DNA from: Nostoc sp. DedSLP01
Lineage (GTDB): Bacteria; Cyanobacteriota; Cyanobacteriia; Cyanobacteriales; Nostocaceae
Assembly: GCA_034530875.2 (NCBI GenBank)
Contig: JAVRCJ020000012.1
Coordinates: forward strand, 1 to 64,000
Length of the DNA stretch: 64,000 bases
Reading direction: 5' to 3'
Shown piece by piece: positions 4,832 to 5,315 of the stretch (positions are counted from its first letter, which is position 1; each line of letters opens with the position of its first letter). The position numbers were made by a program.

Positions 4832-5315
4832 TAAAACGTTTATTTATCCGTGCCCTGACAGAAGAAGCATACATACACATTTATAACGGCCCTAAGGTAG
4901 TAAAATTCGAGCGATCGAACTAGCGACAGTATGATTTCTAAATCTCTCGCAGATTTAGCATACGTGCCCACTGCCAATAATTGGTAAGAGCGACCGTAAG
5001 CTGTAAAAAACTTCTTAAACTTGTACGGTTTAATTCAAGAATTAATTCCGCGCCCTAACTTGTAAAGCATACACACTACTATCCGGAAACGGAATACAGG
5101 TTCGACTCCTGTTGCTCCCGTTAATGGGAGCATAGCCAAAATGGTAAAGGCAAATGTGAAAACTGCTTTGCTAACTTGTGCGGAATTCCAATTATTTAAA
5201 TTGTATTTATCTATTAACCCTGACTCAATTATCAATACGGAGGTGAGTTCAATGATGTTCGCAAATTTATGTTTAAGCAAAAATCAATCTTTAAAACTAT
5301 ATTTAAACAACTTGA

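Follow-up and report, generated by a model that had tools for sequence, protein, structure and literature searches.

The analysed window, the first 64,000 nucleotides of a contig from Nostoc sp. DedSLP01, encodes an RNA (4848-5028, plus strand, 181 nt) that is very probably a Ro60-associated, circularly permuted mimic of 23S rRNA domain IV. The head of this RNA is a shrunken, circularly permuted copy of the domain IV junction (H67-H71), and its paired ends form a handle of the Y RNA type; it seems to be a Y RNA of a kind undescribed so far. Taken as a whole, the explanation that fits best is a Y-type RNA with a permuted domain IV head that acts as an adaptor, and we give this combined reading about an even chance of being right.

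Covariance model R1, built in this analysis, matches the RNA over its full length (163.9 bits, E 2.9e-45) and scores its homologues in 19 other loci at 118-198 bits. An RNA at 4846-5033 had been proposed in the first-pass annotation; an RNA does lie there, with ends that R1 moves to 4848 and 5028. The accompanying statement that Rfam has no family for it holds: searched at E<=1, neither this locus nor any of 40 related loci shows a family that overlaps the RNA. Likewise, no match was found to the YrlA model (RF02553; gathering score 69 bits) at E<=1 anywhere in positions 1-12000 of the window, or to bacterial LSU rRNA (RF02541) overlapping 4846-5033 at the gathering score or at E<=1. Membership in the YrlA class would call for at least 69 bits and a tRNA-like module, and the head is not tRNA-like; an LSU rRNA would show the linear order of its segments, which are permuted here. 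Two characteristic features of Y RNAs are present: (i) pairing of the two ends gives a terminal stem interrupted by an internal loop, and both parts of this stem (P1 and P2) covary, and (ii) a Ro60/TROVE gene lies close by. No sigma-70-like promoter or intrinsic terminator was found flanking the RNA.

Features of the RNA and of its neighbourhood in the window. Column numbers refer to A1, a plain MAFFT alignment of 20 sequences.
Feature	Position	Strand	Remarks
Whole RNA, handle and rRNA-like head	4848..5028	+	R1 full-length match
Handle helix P1, CCGUGC/GUACGG	4848..4853 with 5023-5028	+	A1 columns 1-6 with 228-233
Internal loop between P1 and P2	4854-4861	+	CCUGACAG
Handle helix P2, AAGAAGC/ACUUCUU	4862..4868 with 5010-5016	+	A1 columns 15-21 with 215-221
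3' half of H69 loop (UAUAA) and H69 3' strand (CGGCC)	4882..4891	+	within the 18/19 match to 23S
Junction strand CUAAGGUAGU	4892..4901	+	C4892-G4896 closing UAA, then GUAG(U)
H70/H71-like arm with GNRA-type loop	4900..4924	+	G4900-C4924, U4901-G4923; hairpin UUCGA-GCGA-UCGAA 4906-4919
H67-like helix with extension hairpin	4929..4963	+	G4929-C4963, U4930-A4962, A4931-U4961
H68 base, capped stub	4964..4991	+	G4966-C4991, C4967-G4990, C4971-G4988, U4972-A4987
H69 5' strand and start of H69 loop, GACCGUAAG	4992..5000	+	pairs with 4886-4891
orf69	4625-4834		no family match; the RNA lies after orf69
orf255	5319-6086		no family match
bL12 paralogue	6403-6783		Pfam Ribosomal_L12 2.5e-24; TIGR00855 103 bits against a cut-off of 84
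Putative divergent Ro60/Rsr-type protein, helical-repeat ring and vWA, 477 aa	7102..8535	+	presumed handle partner

The likeness to 23S rRNA is most direct at the 5' side of the head. Since our own assembly contains no 23S gene (its sole match to the LSU model is a GAC-like piece at 12303-12358), the 23S genes of relatives were used as reference. Positions 4882-4900 (UAUAACGGCCCUAAGGUAG) differ in a single one of their 19 letters from the 23S of three relatives (18/19; blastn-short, E 0.002, three loci), and one 23S from the same genus is matched equally well (18/19, E 4e-4, plus strand only). The matched part consists of the H69 loop and the H69 3' strand, and continues into H70. Every one of the 20 A1 sequences contains a 23S match, the best being 27/28 and 30/33; eight of them read CGUAACUAUAACGG.CCUAAGGUAGCGA and are identical to 23S at 26-27 of 28 positions, the whole 9-nt H69 loop included. 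In a Bacteroidetes MAG (L126), 33 of 33 letters equal 23S in a comparison by eye. The family profile matches 23S over 33 nt at E 1e-8 and gives no match to reversed 23S; its other matches to 23S are one at E 6.3 and the H67/H68 part (23S 1816-1851), where the similarity is not significant (E 0.33-1.2). One relative, L009, matches 23S three times in permuted order: its positions 36-54 correspond to 23S 1906-1924 (18/19), positions 116-128, in the H68 part, to 1820-1832 (13/13, E 0.006), and positions 139-155, in the H69 5' strand, to 1886-1902 (16/17, E 0.006). Support from sequence is strong for H69-H70 in all members and for H67/H68 in some members only; for H67/H68, the mapping draws on topology, on covariation and on a small number of members, the profile similarity being no proof of it.

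The first-pass annotation had described the head as a copy of 23S around H69-H71. The copy is confirmed, at 18/19 here and in all 20 A1 sequences, but it is not limited to that part: the whole H67-H68(base)-H69-H70-H71 junction is copied, in permuted order. According to the Rfam LSU alignment of a relative's 23S, the order in 23S is H67 5' strand, a single U, H68 and H69, then the C-UAA-G pair, GUAGC, the closing pair around H71, a linker and the H67 3' strand. The head reads, from 5' to 3', H69 3' strand, H70/H71 stub, H67, H68 base and H69 5' strand. Helix numbers and E. coli positions are those that we take to follow from the Rfam structure line and the standard numbering.

This order accounts for the H69 5' strand, which had been thought not to be copied, so that a true H69 hairpin seemed doubtful. 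The strand is found at the 3' end of the head; with it at this other end, an H69-like helix does form between A4886-C4891 and G4992-U4997, and its three lower pairs covary. Five of the six pairs are formed in this copy (A4886-U4997, C4887-G4996, G4888-C4995, G4889-C4994 and C4891-G4992), C4890/A4993 being mismatched. By pairing together, the two H69 strands make H69 the closing helix of the junction, from which the chain passes into the handle. Among the matches listed, the 3' end of the head reads GCGGCCGUAA in four members (10/10 to 23S), where our window has GCGACCGUAA, and GGCGGCCGUAA in L118 (11/11 to 23S). In general form, this end reads CUGGUAAGAGC followed by GGC or GACCGUAAG, against GGCCGUAAC in 23S.

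The remaining elements of the junction follow the same pattern. The C-UAA-G pair is formed as in the Rfam LSU consensus, where the structure line reads <___> over CUAAG; in A1 (columns 54/58) it is CG in 16 sequences, AU in three and unpaired in one. It is followed by a closing GC/GC pair around the GNRA hairpin, and then by a short helix GCA/UGC with a long hairpin. In the H70/H71 arm, columns 62-63/86-87 are 100% paired and columns 68-72/77-81 are 96.9% paired, with compensatory changes, and the GNRA-type loop is present in all 13 viral-contig and non-cyanobacterial sequences listed. Helix 4929-4963, which from its place in the junction is presumably H67, is 91.7% paired (columns 92-94/131-133), with two compensatory pairs, and its extension hairpin (CUAAAUCU at 4938-4945 with AGAUUUAG at 4951-4958; columns 105-112/121-128) is 90.8% paired. 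In the H68 base, columns 137/166 are CG in 12 sequences and UA in eight, helices 9-11 are 93-100% paired, and the stub is capped by the helix CCAA(4974-4977)/UUGG(4981-4984). The head has (G)U-GCC-CA-CU-GCCAGG and a short cap where 23S has U-GCC-CA-GU-GCCGG.

A 40-pair model that mirrors the Rfam LSU structure of the region was evaluated on three alignments. In A1, 95.7% of cells are paired and 25 of the 40 pairs show compensatory changes; none of 500 shuffles reaches the observed values, and slid controls are 28-40% paired. The H69 helix (columns 51-53/168-170) is 98.3% paired, and all three of its pairs covary (GC/AU/GU, CG/UG/UA and CG/UA). The other two alignments were fitted to the model and are therefore biased towards it: A2 (78 sequences) is 96.6% paired with 33/40 compensatory pairs, and A4 (19 viral-contig and non-cyanobacterial sequences) is 94.2% paired, compared with 67% in shuffles, with 36/40 compensatory pairs. 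The H69 helix is paired at 96.5% in A2 and at 98.2% in A4. Because the pattern scans demanded 23S-like letters, independent evidence in those sets comes from the helices and their covariation, and not from conservation of the letters. RNAalifold found most of the helices and paired column 168 with 135, a pair that we replaced by 168/53 on the grounds of covariation. The head possesses what a mimic of the H67-H71 junction ought to possess, namely all junction helices, 23S-like strands and covariation.

Two forms of the family can be distinguished by the place where the chain ends enter the head. In form 1, represented by this copy and its nearest kin, the ends enter via the H69 loop, the six stem pairs are long-range, and the loop letters are UAAG on the 3' side and (N)AUAA on the 5' side. 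In form 2, to which most other cyanobacterial members belong, a complete 9-nt H69 loop (UAACUAUAA) is closed locally by CG/CG, with CC/GG in three sequences and AG/CU in others; the three lower pairs alone are long-range, and thus the ends enter via the H69 5' strand. Since the handle of form 1 exits via the H69 loop, this copy lacks the free H69 tip that a B2a-type contact would need. The existence of two exit points argues that a free tip is not essential; it weakens the case for strict B2a-type docking and leaves the junction surface available.

In the handle, P1 is 98.3% paired in A1 with changes on both sides in four of six pairs, and P2 is 96.4% paired with three of seven pairs compensatory, C4868/A5010 being mismatched in this copy. 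At the place of the CGAA motif in the bulge, this copy reads CCUGAC; among the sequences listed, the handles of viral and planctomycete relatives have UCGAAU. The same handle is common to 4-12 other RNAs per locus, with handle-only R1 matches of 20-57 bits. The stem of paired ends with its internal loop would be the seat of the adjacent Ro60-like protein. An earlier proposal of a Y-type handle is borne out by this covarying two-part stem next to a protein with a predicted Ro60 fold.

The gene for that protein lies 2 kb downstream of the RNA. Pfam recognizes a VWA domain only, and neither Pfam TROVE (E<=0.01) nor NCBIfam TROVE matches the 477-aa protein. Searched against PDB, the single sequence weakly matched TROVE proteins (E 0.0014); a profile built from 12 orthologues matched no PDB sequence. 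With an AlphaFold2 model (pLDDT 68.8), the top 12 PDB matches in Foldseek are all Ro60/Rsr (2nvo, E 1.2e-10, TM 0.55); for this reason we treat the protein as a divergent Ro60, as suggested by a medium-confidence model.

RNAs with the common terminal stem form an array at approximately 4392-4509, 4848-5028, 5048-5183, 6097-6216, 6913-6982 and 12208-12409. In two of them the head is tRNA-like (Rfam tRNA, 51.7 and 51.4 bits), and the last one matches LSU model positions 1093-1148 at 51.4 bits against a gathering score of 50, a GAC-like piece. Together with the bL12 paralogue, these heads agree with the earlier description of a module presenting several pieces of the translation machinery on Ro60-type handles. 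Among 19 related loci, the Ro60-like gene is present in 16, orf69 in 18, orf255 in 13 and the bL12 paralogue in nine. Kinship of orf255 with the ORF that follows the RNA in a phage was considered and rejected, the two being unrelated.

The family occurs in the order of the host, in at least four other phyla and on phage contigs. BLAST of 301 genomes of the order gave some match in 34, and full-length copies were confirmed by R1 in 20 (our own genome included), with exactly one copy per locus in the 20 loci. In an even sample of the phylum, a member of at least 160 bits was found in five of 151 genomes, all within the order. A pattern scan of one genome per species returned 111 stretches, 80 of which were examined: R1 matches 78 of these at E<=1e-15; with filters off, the remaining two score 53-55 bits. 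Eight of the 80 are non-cyanobacterial by record title (Verrucomicrobiales, Labilithrix, Saprospiraceae, Gemmatales, Isosphaeraceae, Bacteroidetes, Cytophagales and Chryseobacterium). All five of these non-cyanobacterial genomes that were tested contain Pfam TROVE genes above the cut-off, and if gene and RNA share a contig the coordinates put 0.6-3 kb between them; TROVE genes are also present in three of five viral records tested.

The first pattern scan of viral contigs returned nothing, and a looser 19-mer scan returned 27 loci, of which two are true 23S and, by a rough estimate, a handful may be due to chance. Real 23S scores 15 bits with R1, so R1 matches on viral contigs below ~25 bits are unreliable; the robust ones are L203 (82.4 bits), L200 (49.8), L211 (48.1), L217 (41.5), L208 (35.7) and L195/L196 (30.1). 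L203 lies in a complete 204-kb phage genome, where the RNA is located ~0.5 kb downstream of a TROVE+vWA_Ro60 gene, among tRNA genes and directly upstream of a calcineurin-like phosphoesterase gene, with an RNA ligase gene nearby. L200 lies in a provirus, within an array of 12 tRNA matches above the gathering score, together with a TROVE gene and an RLIG1-like ORF.

Traces of the region were found in RNA libraries. Seven runs from two studies contained 6-9% of the sampled words of 4000-7100, and four were aligned. Run X1 yielded a 313-nt contig over 4635-4949 (20 differences) that bridges orf69 and the RNA, as well as two 60-nt contigs over 4928-4979 and 4951-5009 (0 differences); run X5 yielded an 87-nt contig over 4883-4966 (3 differences). 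The zero contig cover of 5040-5663 in the four runs is uninformative. These assembled contigs, from relatives or the same species, show presence in RNA libraries, a hint of expression, and not ends, strand or level.

What such an RNA may do is suggested by the surface that it reproduces. In the ribosome, bridge B2a is formed by the H69 tip, B2b and B2c by H67/H69, and B3 by H71; the head presumably keeps the elements that carry all four. The H67-H71 surface is protein-poor and is used by recycling, splitting and late assembly factors. We infer an adaptor role for the RNA from the published model of Y RNAs as tethers, as given in the available passages of Chen 2014 (PMC4201824). As in other Y RNAs, the handle would hold Ro60; the head would present the RNA face with which the 50S normally meets the 30S; and the natural ligand of this surface would thereby be tethered to Ro60 and to its partner nuclease or repair enzyme. 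The ligand might be the 30S platform/h44 region or a factor gripping H69-H71. We regard the adaptor mechanism as tentative and somewhat short of probable, and the 30S as a distinctly unlikely choice of ligand. A broader proposal, speculative and rather unlikely as it stands, is that interchangeable heads, each a miniature of a ribosome part, program the Ro60 particles of cyanobacteria, of at least four other phyla and of large phages; the present head, a permuted platform of 50S intersubunit bridges, would dock on the 30S or on a platform-reading factor and deliver Ro60 with partner nuclease or repair enzymes to the translation machinery in stress or infection.

The main rival is a role as decoy or bait in conflicts over RNA damage. 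The head would then imitate a site attacked by a toxin, nuclease, modifying enzyme or antibiotic, and the agent would be soaked up, or the damage would be sensed or held by Ro60 and repaired. The sibling heads in the window imitate tRNA and the GAC, both of which are classical toxin targets. However, we know of no agent that aims at the H67-H71 junction, and the site of MazF-mt6, which we take to be UUCCU in H70, is not kept, as the RNA reads UUCGAG there. It is the phage context (tRNA arrays, ligases and phosphoesterase) that makes this rival serious: the RNA at L203 in the phage genome lies among tRNA genes, by TROVE, phosphoesterase and RNA ligase genes; the provirus locus combines 12 tRNA matches with an RLIG1-like ORF; and phage TROVE is called an RNA-repair platform, with a tRNA-like partner, in the excerpted text of a jumbo-phage survey (PMC7824862). 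On the other hand, neither an RNA ligase nor a phosphoesterase was seen among the 14 window ORFs scanned, and as a sponge the RNA would be up against ribosomes, which are far more abundant. We hold the decoy role to be possible, if on the unlikely side.

A role as substrate mimic or titrator of domain IV biogenesis factors (the H69 pseudouridine synthase, methyltransferases or late assembly GTPases) appears improbable. Such an RNA would couple Ro60 to 50S assembly or regulate the factors, consistent with the retention of H69 loop residues in both forms (UAAG with (N)AUAA, or UAACUAUAA) and with the contribution of Rsr to 23S maturation in D. radiodurans mentioned in the retrieved literature. 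Modification could nevertheless be a by-product rather than the function; the U1915-equivalent position is variable (U, G, C or A) in form 1, the form found here; and the module ORFs scanned encode no such factor.

Still less can be said for an rRNA-like autoregulatory element that binds an r-protein, either the bL12 paralogue or a domain IV protein, in the style of an r-protein leader, which we consider very improbable. The module holds a bL12 paralogue, and in the literature passages retrieved rRNA mimicry is well known in r-protein leaders. Yet the RNA has its own closed handle and is located after orf69, not ahead of the bL12 paralogue, which is present in only nine of 19 loci. In addition, bL12 binds uL10 rather than rRNA, and this, together with the protein-poor surface of H67-H71, speaks against the idea. 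Finally, chance likeness or a decaying rRNA gene fragment without a function of its own is hardly credible: this genome taken alone offers a 19-nt match and an unremarkable single-sequence fold (z = -0.85) that misses the long-range H69 helix, but conservation of the RNA extends over phyla and phages, 25-36 of its 40 pairs showing compensatory changes, and decay would not yield a permuted order with neatly truncated, capped H68 and H71.

With a head modelled on a defined, well-studied ribosomal surface, only a few, testable kinds of ligand come into question: the 30S platform, factors for recycling, splitting or late assembly, enzymes that modify H69, and ribosome-attacking agents. As a natural minimal construct of the permuted domain IV junction, tested by evolution, the RNA may also be of use in ribosome structural biology. 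In phages it is found beside genes for an RNA ligase and a phosphoesterase, which connects the biology of Ro60 with the conflict between phage and host over the translation apparatus.

A full-text literature search returned, in the passages retrieved, no description of an rRNA-like Y RNA head, and the bacterial Y RNA modules described there are tRNA-like only. One of the closest known systems is bacterial YrlA/Yrn1 (RF02553; PMC4201824). As far as the accessible text of that paper goes, it shares with our RNA the location beside a Ro60 orthologue, the paired-end stem with an internal loop, a second module imitating a part of the translation machinery, the presence of several RNAs per locus and the occurrence in phages. 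The difference lies in the head, which imitates a 23S rRNA junction here and tRNA in YrlA, and in the length, ~180 nt as compared with 114 model positions. The same text of Chen 2014 reports relatively few YrlA RNAs in cyanobacteria and describes the interactors of the tRNA-like module as unknown; the neighbouring tRNA-like RNAs of our related loci score 24-40 bits with the YrlA model, against the gathering score of 69.

The phage phiLo Ro60 with its adjacent Y-like RNAs Yrl1 and Yrl2 (PMC12135203) is similar in the stem-bulge-stem architecture with CGAA, described in the available passages as a conserved Ro60-binding motif in the bulge and recalling the UCGAAU of the viral and planctomycete relatives among the sequences listed here. 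In those passages, by contrast, Yrl1 and Yrl2 are simple hairpins, and an rRNA-like head is not mentioned. Within our window, the GAC/SRL-like RNA at 12208-12409 has the same type of handle (R1 24.6 bits) and displays another 23S piece; it differs in the part of 23S that is copied and in its position in the locus. Leaders of r-protein operons resemble our RNA in carrying a short copy of an rRNA binding site outside the ribosome; in the literature passages retrieved, they are cis-acting parts of mRNAs with a single protein site, whereas our RNA is a free-standing multi-helix junction on a Ro60 handle. The 23S domain IV core itself (RF02541) shares up to 33 consecutive identical bases, the same helices at one junction, the same C-UAA-G pair and the letters of the H69 loop. 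Our RNA departs from it in its permuted order, in having only the base of H68, a GNRA stub in place of H71 and a new hairpin that closes H67, and in a shorter linker after H70.

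Another Y-handle RNA of the window carries pieces resembling the large-subunit rRNA: it starts with an SRL-like string, uaguacgagaggaag, and has in its head a GAC-like piece (12303-12358) that scores 51.4 bits against the Rfam LSU gathering score of 50. The same LSU-model match was found in a genome of the same genus (G004, 52.9 bits), and R1, the covariance model of the rRNA-like RNA, gave weak handle matches of ~200 nt in five related loci. The Ro60 module also encodes a bL12 ribosomal protein paralogue, which contains the L12 C-terminal and dimerisation domains (Pfam), scores 103 bits with TIGR00855, and is kept in 9 of the 19 related loci.

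Features of the window outside the rRNA-like RNA (the 19 loci are those of other genomes carrying that RNA)
Feature	Position	Strand	Basis
tmRNA-like element, 84 nt, 5' of array	4098-4181	+	tmRNA model
orf69	4625-4834	+	present in 18/19 loci
orf255, 3' of rRNA-like RNA	5319-6086	+	order kept in 13/19 loci
AT-rich short repeats with gaattcag units and aaaatccaaaat palindromes	6226-6267, 7019-7052		
bL12 ribosomal protein paralogue, full-length, within Ro60 module	6403-6783	+	Pfam, TIGR00855
Y-handle RNA with GAC-like piece in head	12208-12409	+	Rfam LSU match
277-aa ORF, 3' of GAC-like RNA	12623-13456	+	
ThiF/E1-like protein, 3' of GAC-like RNA	13547-14185	+	Pfam ThiF 5.4e-27
Group II intron domains V and VI	44423-44500	-	Rfam Intron_gpII 53.1 bits; group II-D5 62.4 bits

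The orf69 product, for which the family search gave no match, has the C-terminus ...VYG. A small protein and the E1-like enzyme might form a putative ubiquitin-like conjugation pair. No family was assigned to orf255 by Pfam or NCBIfam; its closest ESM Atlas clusters are unnamed and come in part from tailed phages.

In the 84-nt element, just the T-arm and the paired ends fit the tmRNA model; the score of 33.2 bits does not reach the gathering score (47), and the element is possibly a mimic of the tRNA-like domain. In the RNA-library run X5, loose ends recognisable as Illumina adapter sequence border positions 4381 and 4506 (+). By this reading, fragment ends would fall near the predicted ends (4392-4509) of the neighbouring tRNA-like Y RNA. 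RNA contigs and joints that belong to unrelated records align in large numbers to the AT-rich repeats, which are probably a dispersed cyanobacterial repeat.

In the Ro60 loci of a phage (L222, G418:C1:96000-112000) and a provirus (L223), the rRNA-like RNA is accompanied by tRNA arrays and RNA ligase genes (PF09414; RLIG1-like). These loci also include a calcineurin-like phosphoesterase, a protein with an ARPP-1 domain, and a YrlA-like match below threshold.
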